A stretch of DNA of 64,000 bases from a virus: IMG/VR virus record IMGVR_UViG_3300046455_000489, positions 5,909 to 69,908 of that record; one strand, 5' to 3'. The notes below the pieces were generated by a model. That model had not been told where the DNA came from, ran no database searches, and saw nothing but the letters and a program-made list of their open reading frames with translations. The number at the start of each line of letters is the position of its first letter. Position 1 is the first letter of the stretch. A program made the translations under genes and the position numbers. Shown here one piece after another: positions 1-64,000 of the stretch.

Positions 1-707
1 GCCTGGCCCATCCACGAGCCCAGCGCAGCCAGCGCCCGCTTCCCGGACTTCGGCATGAAGTGCACGTAAGTCCTCAGCGTGAACGCCGGATCCGAGTGAC
101 CGAGCCACGCAGCCAGCTGAGTGATTGTCTCACCCGCGGCCAGCACCACGCTAGCGAACGTATGCCGCAGAACGTGGAAGCCGTCTTCCCGCGGCATCCT
201 CCAGCTCACCCGCCGCCACGGCTTCTTGCCCGCGCCCTGGACGTACTCGACCTCTGGTTCAGGGATGACGCCGGCTCGGGCCAGGGCGGGCTTCCACTGC
301 TTGTCGTCGAACGTGACCCGGTTGACCGCCCCGCCGCTCACACCGTTCGTTCTCGGAGTGGTCACAAGGAGACGTACTGTCCGCAAGGGCCGCTTCTCCC
401 ACTCAAGGCTGGGGCGGTCCGGGTCGACCCACGGCAGCGTCACCTCGACGGTCGGGAAGACGTTGGCATACTCCTTGACGGCCCGCGCCAACTCCGGCGG
501 ACAGGGCGCCGTCCGGAGCTTGTTTCCCTTCGGCGGGGCGAACCCGAGACGGCTGTTGATCCTCACGATCTGCCGCGTCACATTGATCTCGTCCCCGGCG
601 ATGTCGTCCGGTGAGAAGCCGAGGCACTCCCCCTGCCGCATGCCCGAGCCGGTAGAGAGGTCCACGAGAATCGCGTAGCGGGCGTCCAACTCGGCCCGGA
701 CCGCGGC
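1..707. repeat. Direct repeat copy 1 (= 63294-64000)
   Basis: Sequence and ORF track match at offset 63,293 (e.g. 121..678 vs 63414..63971). Confidence 0.97.
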
Positions 708-1283
708 AGCGGTCTCCTTCGGCCAGGCCTTCGCTTTGGAAGGCGGCGACGCGGGCGGCGACAGGTCTTCGTCCCGGAACGGATTCTCAGGGATCCTCTT
801 CGCCTTGTGGGCCGCCTGCATGATCGACGAGAAGTGGCGCCACGTCGTGCGCACCGTATTGACGTCGATGTCCTGCTCGACCCGGGTCAGCCACGCCTTG
901 ATCTCATCCGGGCCGATCCGGTTCAGAGGCAGGGCGCCGGCGTGCGGGAGGATGTGCAGGAAGACGCGGGGCTTCATGGACTGCTTGGTGCCGGGCGGCT
1001 TGCGCAGGTTGGGCCACCAGGTCTTCTCGACGTACTCCCGCAGGGTCATGTCGCCGTTGCGGGGGTCGTAGAACTGGCCGCGGCTGGTGTCCGTCTGGGC
1101 TTTCGCCAGCCACTCCTCGGCGCTCCCGGGACCTTTCTGGTTCTTGAAGGAGCGGTCTCGCACGCCGGGGATACCGGCGACCCGCCAGCGCTTCCCCTTG
1201 CCCCAGCGTTCGGTCCGGCGCCGCTTCCCCGTCGTCGGATCAGGCTTCTTCGTCAGCCAGCGATCCTCGATGTAACCGGCCAC
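1..1283 (-). CDS. int: Tyrosine integrase, 5' part (full gene ~459 aa, last codons at 63197-63293)
   Basis: GTG at 1283 with GAGGGGG RBS; MAGYIEDRW arm-binding N-terminus; catalytic GMRQGE, HVLRH, LGH and TLRTY motifs. Confidence 0.93.
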   Translation of the reverse strand, partial: MAGYIEDRWLTKKPDPTTGKRRRTERWGKGKRWRVAGIPGVRDRSFKNQKGPGSAEEWLAKAQTDTSRGQFYDPRNGDMTLREYVEKTWWPNLRKPPGTKQSMKPRVFLHILPHAGALPLNRIGPDEIKAWLTRVEQDIDVNTVRTTWRHFSSIMQAAHKAKRIPENPFRDEDLSPPASPPSKAKAWPKETAAAVRAELDARYAILVDLSTGSGMRQGECLGFSPDDIAGDEINVTRQIVRINSRLGFAPPKGNKLRTAPCPPELARAVKEYANVFPTVEVTLPWVDPDRPSLEWEKRPLRTVRLLVTTPRTNGVSGGAVNRVTFDDKQWKPALARAGVIPEPEVEYVQGAGKKPWRRVSWRMPREDGFHVLRHTFASVVLAAGETITQLAAWLGHSDPAFTLRTYVHFMPKSGKRALAALGSWMGQ

Positions 1284-1304
1284 GTGTGACCCCCTCGTCG
1301 TCGT

Positions 1305-1748
1305 TCAGGCTGCGTTGGCCTCGGGGGAGTCCATCGTGACGATCTCCCCATGCCACAGCTGGAACCACTGTCCCCCAGCAAGAAGCTCCACGATGGAACG
1401 GTTGAGCATTCCGATGAACATGCCCGTCGACGTGAGGGGGTGAACGAGCAGAGCAACGTGCCCCTTGTGCTCACGGATCTCGACCGGGGCTTCCAGCGTG
1501 GGCGAGGAGAGTTCGAACGTGACACGCAGAGGGCTACCAGGAGAGGCCGCCGAGACGACCTCACCTTCCCAGATCTGGTACCACTGCGCCGTGGTGACGA
1601 AGTCCAGGAGTGTCTCGTTGAGCGAGGGGATGAAGTCGGCTGGCTCCAGGCCGCGGGCGACCCGGATTTCGACGAGCCCTCTGTCCTCTCTCCAGTCGGA
1701 GAGGATTCCGGGGGCCAGGTTGGCGATCTTGTACACAACACGCAGCAT
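1305..1748 (-). CDS. Hypothetical protein made of two tandem ~70-aa repeats
   Basis: ATG with GGAGGG RBS; QWYQIWEGEVV and QWFQLWHGEIV end each half. Confidence 0.75.
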   Translation of the reverse strand: MLRVVYKIANLAPGILSDWREDRGLVEIRVARGLEPADFIPSLNETLLDFVTTAQWYQIWEGEVVSAASPGSPLRVTFELSSPTLEAPVEIREHKGHVALLVHPLTSTGMFIGMLNRSIVELLAGGQWFQLWHGEIVTMDSPEANAA

Positions 1749-1907
1749 GACGCGCCCTCCCGTTAGAGCGGTGCGCTCGTGACGCAATGGCCTGAAGCGC
1801 ACGGTTGTGGAAGGGTACGACCAGTGAGTGTGTGACCACAATCCGTTGAAAGAATGTCTACTTAGGGACTTCGGCGATCAATGCCGGTCTGGTAGCGCGC
1901 GGCTGTG

Positions 1908-2342
1908 CTACCGCTCCTCGCGGCGTGCACGCTCGTCGGCTTCGATCATCGCCCGCCAGCGGCGCAGCTCCGCCTCGGGCATCCCCGCCAAGTGGCCCAC
2001 GATGATGCGGACTTCATTGCCGTAGCCCGCCAGCTCGGTCGCCTCGTACTCCAGCCACTGCTCGGCCGCCGCTTCCTTGATGGCGCGCAGAGACCGGCCC
2101 GTCCCTGCTGCCAGGGCTTTCATCTGGGCTGGGGTGGGCGGATTGGTGGGGGGGTTCTTCACGAGCCTCTGGAGCGACTGCTTGTAGTAGCGCACGCCAG
2201 ACTCGGAGTCGACGGCGCGGTCCGCCATCTCCTGGTAGGAGAGGCCCGCGTCCTTCGCTTCCTGGATGAGCTTGGACAGCGCACCGATGGTGCCGGGTTC
2301 CGTAGCCGTGCCGTGGTCCGGGGCATTGGCCGGAACCGTCAT
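1908..2342 (-). CDS. Immunity repressor (XRE-like HTH)
   Basis: GLSYQEMADRA...KQSLQRLV HTH; upstream of int and divergent from a Cro-like gene. Confidence 0.75.
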   Translation of the reverse strand: MTVPANAPDHGTATEPGTIGALSKLIQEAKDAGLSYQEMADRAVDSESGVRYYKQSLQRLVKNPPTNPPTPAQMKALAAGTGRSLRAIKEAAAEQWLEYEATELAGYGNEVRIIVGHLAGMPEAELRRWRAMIEADERARREER

Positions 2343-2504
2343 GTCCTCGTCCTCTCGTGGCACTTCAACACCGATTGTCTCTGTGTGTTTGGGGTAGTGC
2401 CGGAAAAATAGCAGGTCACGCCGTACAACCATCTTGGATCTGGGACGGATCGTCCATGGATCAATGCTATCTGGCCACAACTTTGGCCGACACTCGGGAT
2501 CCAG

Positions 2505-2550
2505 TCGTCATTGAGTCATTGACGAACCATCCTCAATAGTGTTGACTCAA
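2505..2550. promoter_or_regulatory. Putative immunity operator region
   Basis: Near-palindrome TCGTCATTGAGTCATTGACGA (2505-2525), TTGACTCAA (2542-2550), half-site copy ACTCAATGACGA at 2825-2836. Confidence 0.55.
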
Positions 2551-2590
2551 GGGCAGTGAAAGGCACCTCTGCAACGGGGGAGATCCATAC

Positions 2591-2833
2591 ATGGTGCGCT
2601 ATGCCCTGCGGGACCTGGACTACTTCAAGAAGACCATGAAACACCCAGGTCGGGGCGCCCCCTTCGAACCGGAAGAGCTCGCGAAGAAGGTCGGCATCTC
2701 CCGGTCGCAGATGTATCGAATCCTGGCCGGTCAGGTATGCGACCTGCCCGTCAATGAAGCGCATGCCGTATCGGAGGCACTCGGTGTCGCCGTGCTGGTT
2801 CTTTTCGTGCCCCCAGTGTCACCAACTCAATGA
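2591..2833 (+). CDS. Cro-like XRE HTH protein
   Basis: EELAKKVGISRSQMYRILAG HTH; divergent from repressor. Confidence 0.8.
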   Translation: MVRYALRDLDYFKKTMKHPGRGAPFEPEELAKKVGISRSQMYRILAGQVCDLPVNEAHAVSEALGVAVLVLFVPPVSPTQ

Positions 2834-2873
2834 CGAATCGTCCCTCAGGTTCACCCCCACAGGAAGGAAGGAC

Positions 2874-3116
2874 ATGCCCCGGCTCGCAAAGGTCCCCACG
2901 CCGGCCCCGCCCGGCTTCGTCTGGATCCAGGAGCTCTCCCGAATGACGGGACTGAGCGTGAAGACGCTCTACAACTACCGCTACCTCGGCAAGGGTCCGC
3001 AGCCCGTCCCCATCGGACGGAAGCTCGCCTACCGCCTGGCCGAAGCCAAGGCCTACGCCGCCGAGCTCCACTCGCCCGAGCCGCTCGACAGCGAGCCGGC
3101 CCGCGCCGCCGCTTAG
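2874..3116 (+). CDS. Excisionase/AlpA-like DNA-binding protein
   Basis: ELSRMTGLSVKTLYNYRYLGKGP...IGRKLAY winged-helix motif; AGGAAGG RBS. Confidence 0.8.
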   Translation: MPRLAKVPTPAPPGFVWIQELSRMTGLSVKTLYNYRYLGKGPQPVPIGRKLAYRLAEAKAYAAELHSPEPLDSEPARAAA

Positions 3117-3201
3117 AGCGGCAAAGAGGCCGCCCCGTAACTCGCCAGTCCGGGACGACCTCCGATCCACCCACAGATCCCGTAGAGAACAGGAGTGGAC
3201 C

Positions 3202-3558
3202 TTGTCCACATCATCCTCCCAGACCCCCGGCCGCGACGACTACATCGCTGGCCTCCGTCAGTTCGCTGACTTCCTGGAGCAGCACCCGGCCGTACAGGCA
3301 CCCGACGGCGAGCGACTGCTCCTCCCCCTCCTCACGAACGCCGCCGTGGACGAGTTCGCCGCCACGCACGAGTTGACGGTCACGACGGACCAGGACGGCA
3401 ACAAGTCCGCGGACCTCGTCTTCGGTCCCGTCGTCTTCCACGCCTACGGCTACGTGGACTTCGTCGACCACCTGAAGCGAGGCCAGGAGAAGCAGGCTCG
3501 CACCTGGGCCGACGCGAACGGCATGGTCATCGAGCCCGCGAACGAGGTGGCCGCGTGA
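3202..3558 (+). CDS. Hypothetical phage protein
   Basis: AGGAG RBS, GC3-rich, overlaps next gene. Confidence 0.7.
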   Translation: MSTSSSQTPGRDDYIAGLRQFADFLEQHPAVQAPDGERLLLPLLTNAAVDEFAATHELTVTTDQDGNKSADLVFGPVVFHAYGYVDFVDHLKRGQEKQARTWADANGMVIEPANEVAA

Positions 3559-3983
3559 ACGCCGAGACGTTCAACTCCCGCTTCCCGGTAGGCACTCCGG
3601 TCTTCGCCTACCCGGGCGCCCGACCGGAGGACATCCCGAGCGCGCGTCGCCTTGTGACCCGCACCCGCACGGAAGCGCGGACGTCGGCGAGCGGCGACCC
3701 GGTCGTCTGGGTCGACGGCGAAGGCGCCTACATCTGCCTCACGCACGTCGACCCCGTATCGATGGACGAGTGGGAGGCCGCGAAGGCGACCGAGGTTGCG
3801 GCTGCCGAGCAGGCCCCCAGGGACACGCTCGCCCCGTGGCTGGCTCAGCGGTTCGATCCGCAGGGCGCCCCGTGGGACGGCATGTCCGACGATGACCGCT
3901 CCTACTGGGAGCACCAGGCCCGAGCGGTCCGTCGTGCGGTCGCCCGGGATGGCTTCAAGGCCGAAGAGGCGGTGACCTCATGA
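3555..3983 (+). CDS. Hypothetical phage protein
   Basis: Coupled GTGA/ATGA overlaps; FNSRFPVGTPV start. Confidence 0.7.
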   Translation: MNAETFNSRFPVGTPVFAYPGARPEDIPSARRLVTRTRTEARTSASGDPVVWVDGEGAYICLTHVDPVSMDEWEAAKATEVAAAEQAPRDTLAPWLAQRFDPQGAPWDGMSDDDRSYWEHQARAVRRAVARDGFKAEEAVTS

Positions 3984-4255
3984 CCGCCGTCAACCGCCGC
4001 CTCGCTGCCGCGATCGCCGAGCAGGGCATCCCGCTGACCGCCGACCTGGTGGCTGCAGGGCCGGAGCGCCGGTACCCGATCAGCCCGCGCCCGGCCGAGG
4101 ACCCGCGGTTCACCCTCGGGCTCGCGCTCGACGTCGCGAAGGTGCTGCACGAGCACGGCTACCCGAATGTCACCAGCGGCCGCGACTTCCTGGAGTTGCA
4201 GCAGGCGCTGTTCGGCTTCCTGTACGTCGGCCCGGACGAGGGAGACGCGTCATGA
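3980..4255 (+). CDS. Hypothetical phage protein
   Basis: Translationally coupled ORF. Confidence 0.7.
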   Translation: MTAVNRRLAAAIAEQGIPLTADLVAAGPERRYPISPRPAEDPRFTLGLALDVAKVLHEHGYPNVTSGRDFLELQQALFGFLYVGPDEGDAS

Positions 4256-25313: not shown

Positions 25314-26609
25314 ATGTCCGTCGAGAAGCAGGTCAACGGCACGTCCGTGGCCTCGCCCGAGCTGCGGTTCGACCCGCGCGCGCTGGCCGAGGCGGAGGCG
25401 ATCCGTACCCGAGCCGCCGCCGAAGCCGACGCGGTGCGCACCAAGGCCGAGGCCGAGGCTGAAGCAGAGAAGATCCTCGCTGTCGAGAAGGCGGAGAAGG
25501 AGCGCATCGCCAACGAGCGTGCGGCGATGCGCCTGGAGAAGGACAAGGCCGACCACCGGGCGCACCTCGCCAAGAAGGCCGCCGAGACGGCCAAGGCGAA
25601 CGCGGAGGAGGAGAAGGGCAAGAAGGCCGCCGCCGAGAAGGAGGCAGCCGAGTCGAAGCATGTCGCTGAGCAGCAGCGCTCCGAGCAGTGGTGGAAGTGG
25701 GGCGCCCGCAGTATCTACGCGGTCGGCCTGGTGATCGCCGCACCGGTGCAGCTGATCCACTTCTGGGACCCGGCGCGCAAGTTCCTCATCGCGGCCCCCG
25801 TCCTCCTGGAAGGCCTGGCCCTCGTCCTGGCGTTCGGTGCCACATGGGCGGTCGCCCATCGCCGGGACGTCGCCCCGTACCGGGTCGGCATCATGCTCGG
25901 CGCCGCCATCGCCGCCGGCATCAACATGTACGGCGGCCTGTCCGACGACCGGATCGGCTTCAACGCCGGCCTCATCGGCGCCATCGCCTCACTCGGCGGG
26001 CCGATCGTTCTCATGGCCTACGAGCACGGCATCGCCCAGAAGGCCGACGGCATCCCGTCCTGGCGAGAGCGACGCAGCGCCGACAAGGCCGCGGAGGCGG
26101 AGGCCGCTGCCGTCGAGCGGGCGCGCCTGGAGAAAGAGGCGGCCGAAGCTGCTGCGGCGGCCGAGAAGAAGGCCGCGCAGGAGCGTGCCGAGGAGGAGCA
26201 GCGTCGCCGCGACGACGACCGGCGCGAGGGTCACCCGGAGGTTTGGAAGACCGCCGAGGCGATGCGTTCGGCGCGCGGCTCGCAGTACGTCACAGAGCAG
26301 ATCTGGGCCGAGGCCTGGTACCGCAAAACCGGCTCGAAGCTCGTCGGTGTGACCGCCGAAATTGAGGCCGAGTCGCGCGCCGCGCAGGCCCGCATGCAGA
26401 ACGTCACCAGCACACCGATTATCGGTGAGTTTTCCCTGATCGAATCCCAAAAGGGTCCCCGCGAGAAGCGTGACCCCAACGCCCCCGACGGGCGCCGCAA
26501 CAACGGCGGCACCCCGCCCGTCCGCCGGGCTGGCGAAAGCGCCCCGCACCACCCCCTCGCACGCAAGCAGGCGTCCGTCGAGCAGACCACCGAGAAGGAC
26601 TCGAAGTGA
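25314..26609 (+). CDS. SpdB2/DUF2637-like multi-pass membrane spread protein
   Basis: Coiled coil, four TM segments, coiled coil and basic C-tail; overlaps traB start. Confidence 0.7.
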   Translation: MSVEKQVNGTSVASPELRFDPRALAEAEAIRTRAAAEADAVRTKAEAEAEAEKILAVEKAEKERIANERAAMRLEKDKADHRAHLAKKAAETAKANAEEEKGKKAAAEKEAAESKHVAEQQRSEQWWKWGARSIYAVGLVIAAPVQLIHFWDPARKFLIAAPVLLEGLALVLAFGATWAVAHRRDVAPYRVGIMLGAAIAAGINMYGGLSDDRIGFNAGLIGAIASLGGPIVLMAYEHGIAQKADGIPSWRERRSADKAAEAEAAAVERARLEKEAAEAAAAAEKKAAQERAEEEQRRRDDDRREGHPEVWKTAEAMRSARGSQYVTEQIWAEAWYRKTGSKLVGVTAEIEAESRAAQARMQNVTSTPIIGEFSLIESQKGPREKRDPNAPDGRRNNGGTPPVRRAGESAPHHPLARKQASVEQTTEKDSK

Positions 26610-28741
26610 GCATCGAAAGGATCCCCAGCGGCACACCCGACCCCGAGTGGGAGCAGCTCGTCGCCGGCTACCTCAATACCCCCGTGCCCGAGCCGGCCCT
26701 GCAGTCCGCCGGCCCGGCCGCCGCGACGCCGACACTCCCCGCCGACCCGATGGGCGACACCCCCCTCGTTCCCGAATGGACGCGCACCACCGGCGGATGG
26801 AAGAGCCGCACCACCGTCGGCCGCGTCAACTCCACCCGTACCTTCCGCAAGTGGATCCGCCGCCAGAAGACCCAGCACGGGCACGGCGCCCAGACGTTCC
26901 GCGGCCTGCGCCGCACCTTCCACTGGATCCAGGGCACCGAAGGCGCACAGATCACCGCCGCCCGACACGAACTGCAGCAGACGCAGCGCGACTACAAGAC
27001 CGCCAAGTGGGCCCACGACCGGCGCCTCGTCCCCGGCAAGGAGAAGGAGAAGCGCCGCAAGGACATGGAGAAGTCGTTCGCCGAGTCCGCGTCGGCGATG
27101 AACAAGTACAAGTCGGCCCAGCGGGATGCGCGCCTGCGCCGCCTCGGTCGCGGTGCCGTCGCTCTCGGGCCGATCGCTGCCGCCGAAGGAGCCGGCCTGT
27201 CCCTCCTCGGCGGGCCCGGCGGACTCCTCGCCACCGGGGCAACCCTCCTCACCTTCGCGCTCCTCGGCCGCCGCACCGACGCGGGGGAGCTGTACACCGA
27301 CCGCGACGCGAAGATCGGCGACGGTGACCGGATGACCGACGAGATGGTCAACCGCGTCTACCGGGACGCCCGCGTCATCGCCGCCGACGACATGCTCAGC
27401 CTCGTCACCCCCTGCACGCTCACCGCCGACGGAACCGCCTGGGCCGTCGTGTTCGACCTGCCGTCCGGGGTGCCGTCCAAGAAGGCGTTCGGGGCGGCCG
27501 ACGGGATTGCGGGAGCGTTCGGTGTGTCCGTCCAGCAGATCAGCCAGCGCCGCGGCGACCGCGAAGGCCGCATCCGCCTGCGGGTCGCCCTGCGGATGCC
27601 GTTCTCCGGCGTGACTCCGCAGGGCCCGCTTCTGACCGCCGAACGGATCAACCTGTGGCGCGAGATCCCCATGGGCGTCGACCAGCGGGGCGAAGGCGTC
27701 GAGGTGTCCTGGGTCGAACGGTCTGGGCTGTTCGGTGGCGAGCCCGGATCGGGCAAGTCCGCGGCAGCCAACGACCTGCTCCTTGCCGCGGCCCTCGACC
27801 CGACCGTGTCCCTGTACCTCGCGGACGGCAAAGCCGGCGCCGACATCACCCCGTTCGAACCCATCGCCGCCATGTACGACACCGACGGCGACCCCCTCCA
27901 GATGCTCGCCATCCTCGAACACATCTGGAACGTCGAGATCCCGGAGCGGCGCGCCCTGGCCAAGGAGCACGGCTCCAGGAAGTTGACCGAGGCCATGGCC
28001 GCCGTGGATTCCCGCGTGCGCCTGGCGGTGCTCCTCGTCGACGAATGGTCGTCCTACGGTGCCGCCGCACCGCCGAAGATCCGCGAAGAGATGGAACGCC
28101 TGCTCCGCCTGATCGTCCAGCAGGGCCGAGCGCTCGGCATCATCACCCTCGCCGCCACGCAAAAGCCCGACGGCGACTCCGTCCCGACCGGCATCCGCGA
28201 CATCCTGTCGATCCGCTGGGCGATGCGCTGCCTCACCCCACAGGCCTCCGACACGATCCTCGGCCAGGGCTACGCGGCCACCGGGCACAACGCCCAGACG
28301 ATCCTCAAGTCGCAGCGCGGCGTGGGCATCCTCATGTCCGGCGAGGCCGCCGAACCGGACCTCGTCATCAGCCACTACTACGACGACGACGAGGTCGCGG
28401 CCATCCTGCGTCGGGCCCACGCCCTGCGGCAGGAGGCGGGCACCCTGCCCGTCACCGTCGAGCCCGAGATCACCATCCTCGACCACCTGATCAAGGCGGC
28501 ATCCGCGACCGGCCGCGGCGTGGTCACCCGGGCCGAACTGTTCGCCTACCTCGCCGGCGTCGACGAGCAGTACGCACGGACCGAGGGGGAGAGCGACGCC
28601 GCCTACAACGCGCGCGCCGGCCGAGCCCTCGCCGCCGCCCTCGACGCGCAAGGCGTGAGCGTCGACGCGGTGAAGGTGCCCACCGAGGACGGCGGCCGGT
28701 CCATGGGCTACCGCCTCGAAGACCTCAACGCCACCCGATAA
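26606..28741 (+). CDS. traB: TraB-type FtsK/SpoIIIE conjugal DNA translocase
   Basis: N-terminal TM pair; Walker A GEPGSGKS, LADGK, Walker B LLVDE, GRALG, ATQKP; C-terminal wHTH-like domain ending GYRLEDL. Confidence 0.88.
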   Translation: MSIERIPSGTPDPEWEQLVAGYLNTPVPEPALQSAGPAAATPTLPADPMGDTPLVPEWTRTTGGWKSRTTVGRVNSTRTFRKWIRRQKTQHGHGAQTFRGLRRTFHWIQGTEGAQITAARHELQQTQRDYKTAKWAHDRRLVPGKEKEKRRKDMEKSFAESASAMNKYKSAQRDARLRRLGRGAVALGPIAAAEGAGLSLLGGPGGLLATGATLLTFALLGRRTDAGELYTDRDAKIGDGDRMTDEMVNRVYRDARVIAADDMLSLVTPCTLTADGTAWAVVFDLPSGVPSKKAFGAADGIAGAFGVSVQQISQRRGDREGRIRLRVALRMPFSGVTPQGPLLTAERINLWREIPMGVDQRGEGVEVSWVERSGLFGGEPGSGKSAAANDLLLAAALDPTVSLYLADGKAGADITPFEPIAAMYDTDGDPLQMLAILEHIWNVEIPERRALAKEHGSRKLTEAMAAVDSRVRLAVLLVDEWSSYGAAAPPKIREEMERLLRLIVQQGRALGIITLAATQKPDGDSVPTGIRDILSIRWAMRCLTPQASDTILGQGYAATGHNAQTILKSQRGVGILMSGEAAEPDLVISHYYDDDEVAAILRRAHALRQEAGTLPVTVEPEITILDHLIKAASATGRGVVTRAELFAYLAGVDEQYARTEGESDAAYNARAGRALAAALDAQGVSVDAVKVPTEDGGRSMGYRLEDLNATR

Positions 28742-61672: not shown

Positions 61673-62005
61673 ATGAAGCAGCCTACGGACCAGCCAGCCA
61701 CAGACCAGACCCTCGCCAGCCTCATCGACGAGGCGATCGGCGCCCGGCAGATGCTGCCGCGGCGGGAGCGCTGCGAGGAACTCGACCGGGCTTTACGGGA
61801 TCGCGTCGCCCAGCTGCTGCCCTCGGTTGAGGAGCGGGCCGGCGCGGCCGTGGAGCGGACCCGGGAGTGGTACCGGCTGCGGGCCATCGTCGACGACTCC
61901 CGCGAGATCCTGAATGCCGGTCTCGGCCACGGTCTGCTGTCCGCGGCGATACAGGTCGGCCGGCTCGCCGAGCAGTGCCAGGCGCTGGCGGCGGAGGCTT
62001 CCTGA
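61673..62005 (+). CDS. DUF6415-like helical protein
   Basis: GGAG RBS; LRDRVAQLLP.V...GLG.GL.SA...LA..C.AL. Confidence 0.65.
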   Translation: MKQPTDQPATDQTLASLIDEAIGARQMLPRRERCEELDRALRDRVAQLLPSVEERAGAAVERTREWYRLRAIVDDSREILNAGLGHGLLSAAIQVGRLAEQCQALAAEAS

Positions 62006-62226
62006 CTCCCGGGTCAGGTTGCTGTGGAGGTTCTGTGCGCCGCCTATGGGTGTGGGTGTCATGGACTGCCGGGGTATGTGCAGGCCACGGCTTCCACCGA
62101 AGGTGAATGCCAGGTTGCGAATGTGTGGGCAGCGTGAAGAGATGTGCTGTGCATGCTCTTCCGTAACCGATTACGGTGCGCTTGAATCTTGTTCAGCTTG
62201 TGGCACGAAACAGCGGTTGAGGCAGG

Positions 62227-62466
62227 TCAGCCGTGGAGGAGGTCGGCGATGCGCACACCTAAGACGCGGGCGATCCGCAGCAGCGTGTTGAGGGACGGGT
62301 TAGCGACACCGCTCTCGATCTGCTGGTAGTAGGCCCGGTTGAGCGGAATCGCTAGGAACACCTTCTCCTGGGTGAGGTTGGCGTCCATGCGGGCGTTGCG
62401 GATGGACCTGCCGATGCGTTGCCGTTCCTCGCGGAGGGCGTCGTCGTCTGGCGGGTCGGATGTCAC
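62227..62466 (-). CDS. XRE-family HTH regulator
   Basis: IGRSIRNARMDANLTQE...YQQIESGVANPSLNTLLRIA. Confidence 0.85.
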   Translation of the reverse strand: MTSDPPDDDALREERQRIGRSIRNARMDANLTQEKVFLAIPLNRAYYQQIESGVANPSLNTLLRIARVLGVRIADLLHG

Positions 62467-62588
62467 TCGACAAACGCTCAACCCAAGACGATCATGAGTC
62501 AGCCTGGCGGCAGCAGGCTTTCTGTGATCTTGATCGCCCAGCCCTGCGCTATGGCAGATGACGCAGGGCTACAGGTAGTGTCCCTAAA

Positions 62589-62604
62589 TCGAATACATGT
62601 TCGC
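62589..62604. promoter_or_regulatory. Imperfect actinobacterial LexA (SOS) box
   Basis: TCGAATACATGTTCGC vs TCGAAC-N4-GTTCGA, just downstream of a TAGTGT -10. Confidence 0.55.
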
Positions 62605-62706
62605 CCGATCGGGTGAACACCCCCTCCCACCTGCATTCGGTTGAACAGGTCGGGCAGTAGCGAACCACCCCCCACCTCAACATCCGCACCGCCAACGGGA
62701 GCCGGC

Positions 62707-62946
62707 ATGGAACGACAGCAGATCCTCGACCTCTACGAATGGGCGCCCGGGAGCTGCTTCCGACATCCCTCCAAAGGCGAGGTGGCGACGGCCCACGTGA
62801 AGACCGTGCACCCGCGCTCCAACCACGACGAGGAACTGCGGGCCTGCAAGGAGTGCATCCTCCAGATGGAGCAGGAGCGCTGGGCGGCGGCAAGCAGCGA
62901 GGGCGTCGAGTACACGCCGGGCCGGGTCGGTGAACCCCTGCCTTAG
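62707..62946 (+). CDS. Small Zn-binding hypothetical protein
   Basis: GGGAG RBS; LYEWAPGSCFRHP...ACKEC. Confidence 0.7.
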   Translation: MERQQILDLYEWAPGSCFRHPSKGEVATAHVKTVHPRSNHDEELRACKECILQMEQERWAAASSEGVEYTPGRVGEPLP

Positions 62947-62981
62947 CTGCACTCCAGAGGCCTGATCAGCCCCTCATTCGT

Positions 62982-63280
62982 GGGGAGAATCTGGGGAGTG
63001 AGGGCGTCCGGGGAGCGCCCGGGGGGCGTCAGTTCTTAAACTGAAAGGCACCCCCGGGCACTCGCGGGAACTCAAAGGAACTCCAGGTCAGAGGAGTCCC
63101 AGAGCCGAAAGCCCAGGCCGCGAGGCGACCGGGCGACAGAACCCGGCGTACAGCCCGACTCGTCTGCCGCTTAACCCACTGACCAGCAACAACCCGTCAC
63201 TTCTCATGATCCAAAGGGGTCCCGGGGAGAATCTGGGGAGAATCAGCAGCGGGAGAGATCGCGGGGAGTTCCTGGGGGGA
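62982..63280. other. attP with arm-type repeats
   Basis: GGGGAGAATCTGGGGAG at 62982-98 and 63224-40 flank the core; immediately downstream of int. Confidence 0.75.
63111..63166 (+). ncRNA. rnpB: 3' fragment of RNase P RNA (rnpB) forming the attP core; not a complete gene
   Basis: GACAGAACCCGGCGTACAGCCCGACTCGTCTG matches CR-V, the P4 3' strand and the P1 3' strand of bacterial type A RNase P RNA; preceded by a P19-like GCC-GCGA-GGC hairpin. Confidence 0.8.
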
Positions 63281-64000
63281 AGCACCACCCCCGGCCTGGC
63301 CCATCCACGAGCCCAGCGCAGCCAGCGCCCGCTTCCCGGACTTCGGCATGAAGTGCACGTAAGTCCTCAGCGTGAACGCCGGATCCGAGTGACCGAGCCA
63401 CGCAGCCAGCTGAGTGATTGTCTCACCCGCGGCCAGCACCACGCTAGCGAACGTATGCCGCAGAACGTGGAAGCCGTCTTCCCGCGGCATCCTCCAGCTC
63501 ACCCGCCGCCACGGCTTCTTGCCCGCGCCCTGGACGTACTCGACCTCTGGTTCAGGGATGACGCCGGCTCGGGCCAGGGCGGGCTTCCACTGCTTGTCGT
63601 CGAACGTGACCCGGTTGACCGCCCCGCCGCTCACACCGTTCGTTCTCGGAGTGGTCACAAGGAGACGTACTGTCCGCAAGGGCCGCTTCTCCCACTCAAG
63701 GCTGGGGCGGTCCGGGTCGACCCACGGCAGCGTCACCTCGACGGTCGGGAAGACGTTGGCATACTCCTTGACGGCCCGCGCCAACTCCGGCGGACAGGGC
63801 GCCGTCCGGAGCTTGTTTCCCTTCGGCGGGGCGAACCCGAGACGGCTGTTGATCCTCACGATCTGCCGCGTCACATTGATCTCGTCCCCGGCGATGTCGT
63901 CCGGTGAGAAGCCGAGGCACTCCCCCTGCCGCATGCCCGAGCCGGTAGAGAGGTCCACGAGAATCGCGTAGCGGGCGTCCAACTCGGCCCGGACCGCGGC
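63197..64000 (-). CDS. int: Tyrosine integrase, 3' part (second copy, truncated by window end)
   Basis: GMRQGE...HVLRHTFAS...LGHSDPAFTLRTYVH; stop at 63197. Confidence 0.93.
   Translation of the reverse strand, partial: AAVRAELDARYAILVDLSTGSGMRQGECLGFSPDDIAGDEINVTRQIVRINSRLGFAPPKGNKLRTAPCPPELARAVKEYANVFPTVEVTLPWVDPDRPSLEWEKRPLRTVRLLVTTPRTNGVSGGAVNRVTFDDKQWKPALARAGVIPEPEVEYVQGAGKKPWRRVSWRMPREDGFHVLRHTFASVVLAAGETITQLAAWLGHSDPAFTLRTYVHFMPKSGKRALAALGSWMGQAGGGASPQELPAISPAADSPQILPGTPLDHEK
63294..64000. repeat. Direct repeat copy 2 (= 1-707)
   Basis: Matches window start. Confidence 0.97.

Follow-up and report, generated by a model that had tools for sequence, protein, structure and literature searches.

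The attachment site (attP) of a temperate Streptomyces phage is described here, the core of which coincides with the 3′ end of rnpB, the host gene for RNase P RNA. Within the window, as we call the whole stretch of 64,000 nucleotides that was analysed, positions 62982 to 63268 very probably make up attP, and the integrase encoded beside it would act on a 52-nt block, recombining it with its exact counterpart at the 3′ terminus of this single-copy host gene. The central proposal of the original prediction, that the attP core is the end of RNase P RNA, is borne out by the 52-nt identity and by a relative of the phage that lies integrated at exactly this place in a Streptomyces genome (G001); that the phage itself integrates into rnpB we infer from these comparisons.

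In the mechanism that we propose, the sites bound by the integrase are most likely of two sorts, namely the arm-type repeats GGGGAG(AATC) on both sides and the core between them. Integration would then generate an attL composed of the 5′ part of rnpB, the block and the int arm, and an attR composed of the left phage arm, the block and the downstream host sequence. The rnpB gene of the lysogen would stay full length, its 3′ end now being phage DNA.

The phage genome and its integrase

The window represents bases 5909 to 69908 of a virus record that is 69,908 bp long and has direct repeats at its termini. Positions 1–707 of the window are identical to 63294–64000, so that the unit genome is a closed one of 63,293 bp. 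Its products include a terminase large subunit, a portal, a head protease, a major head protein, a tape measure of 1,565 aa and an endolysin; the element is a tailed, temperate siphophage of Streptomyces. The idea that this site would suit conjugative spread finds no backing in a genome with a full head, tail and lysis module and no match at the level of TraB. An FtsK/SpoIIIE-like protein of 711 aa (26606–28741, plus strand; phrog_1358, E 5e-107) may have prompted the word "conjugative"; its likeness to the plasmid protein TraB is only distant, at 24.9 bits against a cut-off of 800. The genes that concern integration and its likely control are the following.

63197–64000 (3′ part) and 708–1283 (5′ part), minus strand: tyrosine integrase gene (int), 459 aa; open reading frame, PF00589, phrog_1
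2754–3116, plus strand: candidate excisionase or small HTH protein, 120 aa, 1.5 kb from the int start; HTH_17 E 1.3e-3 and MerR E 4.9e-4, both under the Pfam cut-offs
62227–62481, minus strand: HTH_3 (Cro/CI-type) regulator, likely part of the lysogeny switch; PF01381, 47.4 bits
61247–61510, minus strand: GntR-type HTH protein, a small regulator near attP
61673–62005, plus strand: DUF6415 protein near attP
62641–62946, plus strand: open reading frame of 101 aa near attP

The 5′ part of int appears at 708–1283 because window positions 1–707 repeat 63294–64000. The assignment of the product as an integrase is based on PF00589 (40.2 bits against a cut-off of 27.1) and on a match to the phrog_1 integrases with an E value of 2.9e-41 across integrase residues 26–435, together with weak matches of the C-terminal part to chains of Tn1549-type Int and of the HP1 integrase. 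Inspection of the protein sequence by eye shows the R, HxxR, H and Y motifs. For the candidate excisionase at 2754–3116, a search of NCBIfam returned no match.

Layout of the attachment site

The elements of attP are arranged as follows.

62982–63015, plus strand: P-arm arm-type repeats, GGGGAG at 62982, 62993 and 63010, the first two 11 bp apart; seen in the sequence and conserved in relatives
63030–63048, unstranded: A+T-rich segment CAGTTCTTAAACTGAAAGG between the arm repeats and the core; putative DNA-bending site
63077–63100, minus strand: terminator-like hairpin on the int strand, past the core as seen from int, with an 8-pair stem and a T-rich tail; contains CAGGTCAGAG (63084–63093)
63117–63168, plus strand: attP identity block of 52 nt, equal to the rnpB 3′ end; RF00010 scan and host matches
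63136–63168, plus strand: minimal block common to all rnpB-linked relatives, ACAGAAC...CTGCC; comparison of relatives
63142–63148, plus strand: CCCGGCG, the 3′ strand of the catalytic helix P4, complementary to a CG(U)CCGGG of host rnpB that lies close to the 5′ end; alignment of locus L059
63179–63186, plus strand: CTGACCAG, the inverted counterpart of CAGGTCAG; kept at about +44 in relatives
63224–63268, plus strand: P′-arm arm-type repeats, GGGGAG at 63224, 63235 and 63263, within the int 3′ end

The 10-mer GGGGAGAATC occurs three times in the 64 kb (at 62982, 63224 and 63235), always flanking the block, while shuffled sequence contains it 0.2 times on average and none of 100 shuffles reaches three. 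The strings on which the original prediction was built are located as it stated: GACAGAACCCGGCGTACAGCCCGACTCGTCTG at 63135–63166, the GCC-GCGA-GGC element at 63117–63126, and GGGGAGAATCTGGGGAG twice, at 62982–62998 and at 63224–63240. Its placing of the block directly downstream of int is also correct, but the right-hand repeat sits inside the 3′ end of the int reading frame, the stop codon of which (63197–63199, minus strand) is 28 nt from the rnpB-like block. A+T-rich stretches are found in the same place as the putative bending site in L137–L140, L145, L146 and L148. A terminator on the rnpB (plus) strand after the block was not found in the window, and folds there are no better than those of shuffled sequence.

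The core block and rnpB

A search with RF00010, which had been suggested for the region around 63100–63180, gave a match at 63121–63166 with 24 bits and an E value of 1.8e-5 (permissive cmscan of the 901 nt from 62600 to 63500), aligned to the last 29 positions of the model plus a spurious pairing partner. Full rnpB is absent from the window, where no RF00010 match reaches the gathering score of 100 bits and only a 46-nt fragment of the 3′ end is present, and it was not found in the whole virus record. Across the window no RNA family was detected at its gathering score, and tRNA and tmRNA genes are absent.

In host genomes the 32-mer GACAGAACCCGGCGTACAGCCCGACTCGTCTG is present exactly in at least 120 genome stretches; among the matches listed nearly all are from Streptomyces, with one Actinacidiphila and some metagenome bins as the others. 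RF00010 matches end exactly at this 32-mer, at model position 367, in 15 of the 18 loci scanned, and they are full length in 14 of these (277–299 bits) and cut by the locus edge in L079 (205 bits); the remaining three loci (L081, L077 and L053) hold partial copies or copies at the locus edge. As 54 of the 121 matches listed (from 120 loci) are identical to the phage over a further 18 nt upstream (GCCGCGAGGCGACCGGGC) and 2–6 nt downstream, the block shared by attP and attB extends from 63117 to 63168, which is 52 nt. The identification of this block as the 3′ end of Streptomyces rnpB is thus upheld both by the RF00010 match and by the 52-nt identity to hosts.

Within the block lie part of P19, J19/4, the 3′ strands of P4 and P1, the tail and 2 nt past the gene, the helices, P4 for CCCGGCG among them, being named as in the RNase P literature. 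In the RF00010 alignments of host genes it corresponds to part of an inserted hairpin between the 3′ strands of P2 and P4, which we take to be the P19 of the original prediction, then to the junction at ACAGAA, to CCCGGCG, and to the 3′ strand of P1 together with its tail. The complementarity of CCCGGCG to CG(U)CCGGG identifies it as the 3′ strand of P4, and the RF00010 alignments agree with the original prediction that the quoted sequence represents this strand and that rnpB ends in it. An rnpB 29-mer, with up to two mismatches allowed, is found in 373 of 401 Streptomyces species genomes and a reversed control pattern in none of them; the host target is single-copy, essential and nearly invariant.

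Integrated relatives

Duplications of the rnpB 3′ end flanking a homologous prophage, which the original prediction had proposed to look for, were found in G001, where two copies of the block on one contig, 75,674 bp apart, delimit a 75.7-kb prophage in rnpB. Its Int is 96–97% identical to that of the phage. The int-side end of this prophage is 93% identical to window positions 63117–63293 continued by 1–3221, and the other end is 88% identical to 62222–63168, with mosaic homology between the ends. Its attL consists of host rnpB, the block and the int arm, and the rnpB there is full length (290.8 bits); its attR consists of the left phage arm, the block and downstream host sequence, the last of which resembles the unoccupied loci L023 and L096. 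Locus L050 of this genome has the left arm of the window itself before the block and host-type sequence after it. A second attL is provided by the provirus record L142, in which rnpB model positions 292–367 lie beside an Int 82% identical to that of the phage. Full rnpB lies directly beside int in G278 and G127, and the junctions are precise.

Conservation of the site among integrase relatives

The rnpB end is carried by 16 of the 27 IMG/VR loci with Int relatives (59–97% identity), and its distance to the int stop is 31–55 nt in 15 of the 16 and 131 nt in L145. All 15 attP sequences compared have a GGGG-type repeat at exactly +88 and +99 from ACAGAA, and all have two to five repeat copies in the P arm at −175 to −110. 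The exact hexamer GGGGAG occupies both +88 and +99 in 12 of the 15, as it does in two reconstructed prophage attPs; the exceptions are L139 and L140, with GGGGGG at +88, and L145, with GGGGAC at both positions. The repeats co-vary across the arms, with GGGGACA on both in L145 and GGGGAGTC on both in L153, as is characteristic of arm-type sites that a protein binds.

A quick maximum-likelihood tree was built from 58 Int sequences, with L078 dropped for the shortness of its match and L163 left out; rnpB-linked members are found in both deep clades, and the rnpB-site labels require 8 changes against 26 when the labels are shuffled. One subclade of 11–12 Int relatives, plus others, has no rnpB end nearby, so the family is not uniformly rnpB-specific. 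None of the 26 Int-relative loci without an rnpB end was found to contain a tRNA or tmRNA gene. The subclade without the site comprises L152, L154, L156–L162 and L169–L171, with Int 59–70% identical to that of the phage and no tRNA gene nearby.

These data bear on other readings of the fragment. It might be a passive relic of imprecise excision, carried by a phage that integrates elsewhere or never, and the greater length of the rnpB piece here (52 nt) than in many relatives, together with the comparative nature of the case for integration, speaks for such an origin. The position of the piece relative to int and the arm repeats is, however, constant across Int identities from 59 to 97%, and the attL and attR junctions in G001, G127, G278 and L142 are precise, so that we consider a relic very improbable. 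Alternatively the fragment could work not as a DNA site but as RNA, for instance as a decoy, an antisense transcript or a mini-ribozyme that stems from RNase P RNA. cmscan does align 63121–63166 from end to end, with a deletion of 324 model positions and with CGAGGCGACCG paired with the P1 3′ strand, but the score of 24 bits compares with a gathering score of 100 and three of the pairs are non-standard; shuffles fold at least as well (z +0.45), a promoter-like site was looked for and none was found, and a DNA site accounts for every feature. A function as RNA accordingly seems extremely unlikely.

Hardly any weight can be given either to the view that the window joins host DNA to a prophage, in which case the block would be attL or attR and not attP. 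IMG/VR records can be excised proviruses, as L142 is, but here neither the window nor the record contains a full rnpB and the record closes on itself, while both arms are phage-like and common to L137–L140, and in G001 the two arms are separated by a whole prophage.

Position of the strand exchange

With 62982–63268 taken as attP, the extent of identity to rnpB limits where within the block the strands could be exchanged. This identity measures 52 nt in the clade of the window and 46 nt in L141 and L163, and it comprises only ACAGAAC...CTGCC in L146, L150 and L153. Its left boundary also falls exactly at ACAGAA in the G278 prophage, in the type-B elements described below and in L045, and in two genomes of the class-level sample with a different rnpB sequence the repeats, of 30 and 41 nt and lying 7.9 and 14.6 kb downstream of rnpB, start at (G)ACAGAA. 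Because the overlap must be identical in both partners, the crossover should lie inside ACAGAAC...CTGCC (63136–63168), and because identity 3′ of the crossover rebuilds the gene, the exchange would be expected at the 5′ edge of this minimal block. In attB, ACAGAAC is flanked by the inverted pentamers CCGGG (63129–63133) and CCCGG (63142–63146). Integration sites in tRNA and tmRNA genes were reportedly divided by Williams in 2002 into anticodon-loop, T-loop and 3′-end sublocation classes (cited in PMC12884075). An exchange at the 5′ edge, in ACAGAAC (63136–63142), would resemble the anticodon-loop class and would have the phage supply the 3′ strands of both P4 and P1; we consider this position about as likely as not.

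The original prediction had put the crossover in or near the P19 hairpin (63117–63133), by way of the symmetry of GCC-GCGA-GGC. The phage and its closest kin (L137–L140) do carry 18 nt of P19, and this short palindrome is present, yet in relatives with 67–80% Int identity the shared sequence starts at ACAGAA, and both these relatives and independent families keep the site without P19 identity. The overlaps of tyrosine recombinases are usually 6–8 bp, and the GCGA loop, as a spacer of only 4 nt, is short by comparison. Strand exchange in or beside P19 is therefore disfavoured, and we think it improbable. Polymorphisms between junctions were also compared: attL and attR of G278 differ at the equivalents of window positions 63158 and 63167, and G191 differs at two sites. 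If the phage alleles are those of its relatives, these differences could place the crossover in the last 8 nt; since host and phage alleles are indistinguishable and the displaced copy may have decayed, they do not fix it.

Relation to known integration systems

The system is of a known kind, in which a tyrosine integrase rebuilds the 3′ end of a stable-RNA gene; what appear to be new are the choice of an essential ribozyme gene as the target and the wide use of this target in Streptomyces. The integrases that target tRNA and tmRNA genes likewise have int beside attP, arm-type repeats on both sides, direct repeats flanking the prophage, and a block that reaches or just passes the 3′ end of the stable-RNA gene, through which the gene is rebuilt. 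They differ in that the target here is rnpB, a single-copy gene of about 400 nt for an essential ribozyme RNA, and in that the block represents the 3′ strands of P4 and P1 and not a tRNA arm. Among actinobacterial elements, pSAM2, SLP1 and mycobacteriophage L5 have tyrosine integrases with arm-type sites that use tRNA gene 3′ ends; they share with the phage the arm-type sites and the use of the 3′ end of an RNA gene, and are unlike it in targeting tRNA genes in place of rnpB. The hairpin on the int strand (63100–63077), which lies beyond the attP core, recalls the sib retroregulation of phage lambda in layout only; this resemblance is read from the layout, and the hairpin would part from int on integration.

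A parallel outside the tRNA and tmRNA genes is found in the Enterococcus phage phiEf11, for which integration into ffs, the gene for the 4.5S/SRP RNA, was described in 2025 as a novel attachment site, with lysogenisation reported and a core of 27 nt located 74 nt from int (PMC12540744). That report names tRNA/tmRNA and csRNA as non-coding-RNA targets and does not mention rnpB as one (PMC12540744). phiEf11 resembles the present phage in having attB in an essential stable-RNA gene other than a tRNA gene and a short identical core near the int terminus; it differs in the gene, the host phylum and the integrase, and the evidence here is comparative only, as against lysogenisation there.

A full-text literature search, with subscription journals, supplements and the 2020 TIGER paper outside its scope, returned no instance of rnpB as attB, and large island databases may already hold such rnpB islands unlabelled. 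Neither an attP-type rnpB site nor a homologue of this Int (E limit 1e-20) was found among 50,697 deposited phage records, in which the sole rnpB match, MT836823.1, is to the full gene. That record (L164) is an unverified "Bacteriophage sp." contig from human faeces with a complete RNase P RNA gene at 3656–4032 (294 bits), and may be bacterial DNA or the end of a provirus.

rnpB-linked elements in Streptomyces

The description of this attB as unusual is correct for what is in print and does not hold for genomes, where the rnpB site is common. About 51 of 401 Streptomyces genomes have at least two copies of the rnpB 3′ end, by a hand count accurate to within one or two and made on a set that includes the unpublished genome G135 (single copy). 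A member of the Int family (E at most 1e-100) is likewise present in 51 of the 401, of which 19 are multi-copy by hand count. In 12 of the best 30 Int loci from these 401 genomes the rnpB end lies beside int, and does so in two layouts. In type A (five loci, G001 among them) block and int converge, and full rnpB directly adjoins int, as confirmed in G278 and G127. In type B (seven loci) the block is co-directional with int, which lies at the far end of the element, and the distance to full rnpB, which lies upstream, is 75 kb in G140 and 102 kb in G191. The type-B elements carry the arm repeat AAGTCCC on both arms, at about −87/−76 and +122 to +166, and bring a strong hairpin-plus-T-run terminator directly after rnpB; at least two AAGTCCC copies occur within 300 nt downstream in 9 of 115 full rnpB loci. 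Type-B elements such as L195/L200 (G140), L196/L201 (G191) and L081/L018 (G005) measure 55–102 kb and have an Int about 50% identical to that of the phage. When RF00010 was run class-wide to look for partial copies, 4 of 151 genomes were flagged, including the unpublished G411 and G439; the scan missed the known partial copy in G001, and so yields no prevalence figure.

RNase P RNA joins the short list of stable RNAs whose genes serve as docking sites, namely tRNA, tmRNA, csRNA and, since 2025, ffs, and annotators and island finders limited to tRNA and tmRNA genes will miss the rnpB elements. Since the target is single-copy, essential and nearly invariant, an int-attP cassette is a plausible broad-range integration vector for Streptomyces. 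A more far-reaching reading would see in rnpB a major integration hot-spot of Actinomycetes that has been overlooked and that a dedicated integrase family uses in both orientations, with exchange in the universally conserved ACAGAA/P4 catalytic core producing a chimeric host–phage ribozyme gene. As the phage supplies no terminator, strong rnpB transcription would then run antisense into int, the int hairpin would be left at the other end of the prophage, and the stability of the prophage would be coupled to an essential gene. We put this forward as a speculation that is rather unlikely to hold in full.

Several further elements and assemblies were noted beside these. A third family (L053, L077 and L078) combines an unrelated left arm, the rnpB 32-mer and a type-B-like right arm, with a distant Int (28–29% identical) near the 32-mer in L077 and L078, and may be a tandem or free form; in G003 a copy of this family lies inverted, 4.3 Mb from the other match. 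Locus L028 (G314:C29:642655 and 645992) has two full rnpB genes of 290.4 bits each, inverted and about 3.3 kb apart, which is either a duplication or an assembly artefact. G064 has three copies of the rnpB end (C19:1-33, C19:56239 and C30:152777) and no full-length RF00010 match in the assembly; one contig begins exactly at the rnpB repeat, and the assembly was probably broken by the repeat. Sequence like the rnpB 3′ end is also found on three Streptomyces replicons of 1.0–1.6 Mb filed as plasmids (H2–H4), with matches over 44–82% of a 66-nt query at 87.5–100% identity.

The hairpin motif CAGGTCAGAG is found again in the P arms of most relatives and of other rnpB-linked elements. In the form CAGGTCAG(A/G)G it stands 12–55 nt upstream of ACAGAA in nearly every family of rnpB-linked elements, the sites including window 63084–63093, L081, L045, L218, L219 and many host loci, and the families extending to two genomes whose rnpB is not of the usual Streptomyces type. 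An inverted form, CTGACC(A/T)G, lies about 13 nt past the rnpB end in the P′ arms of the phages and in many host terminator loops, and motifs of this type could be either putative binding sites or a shared feature of terminators.
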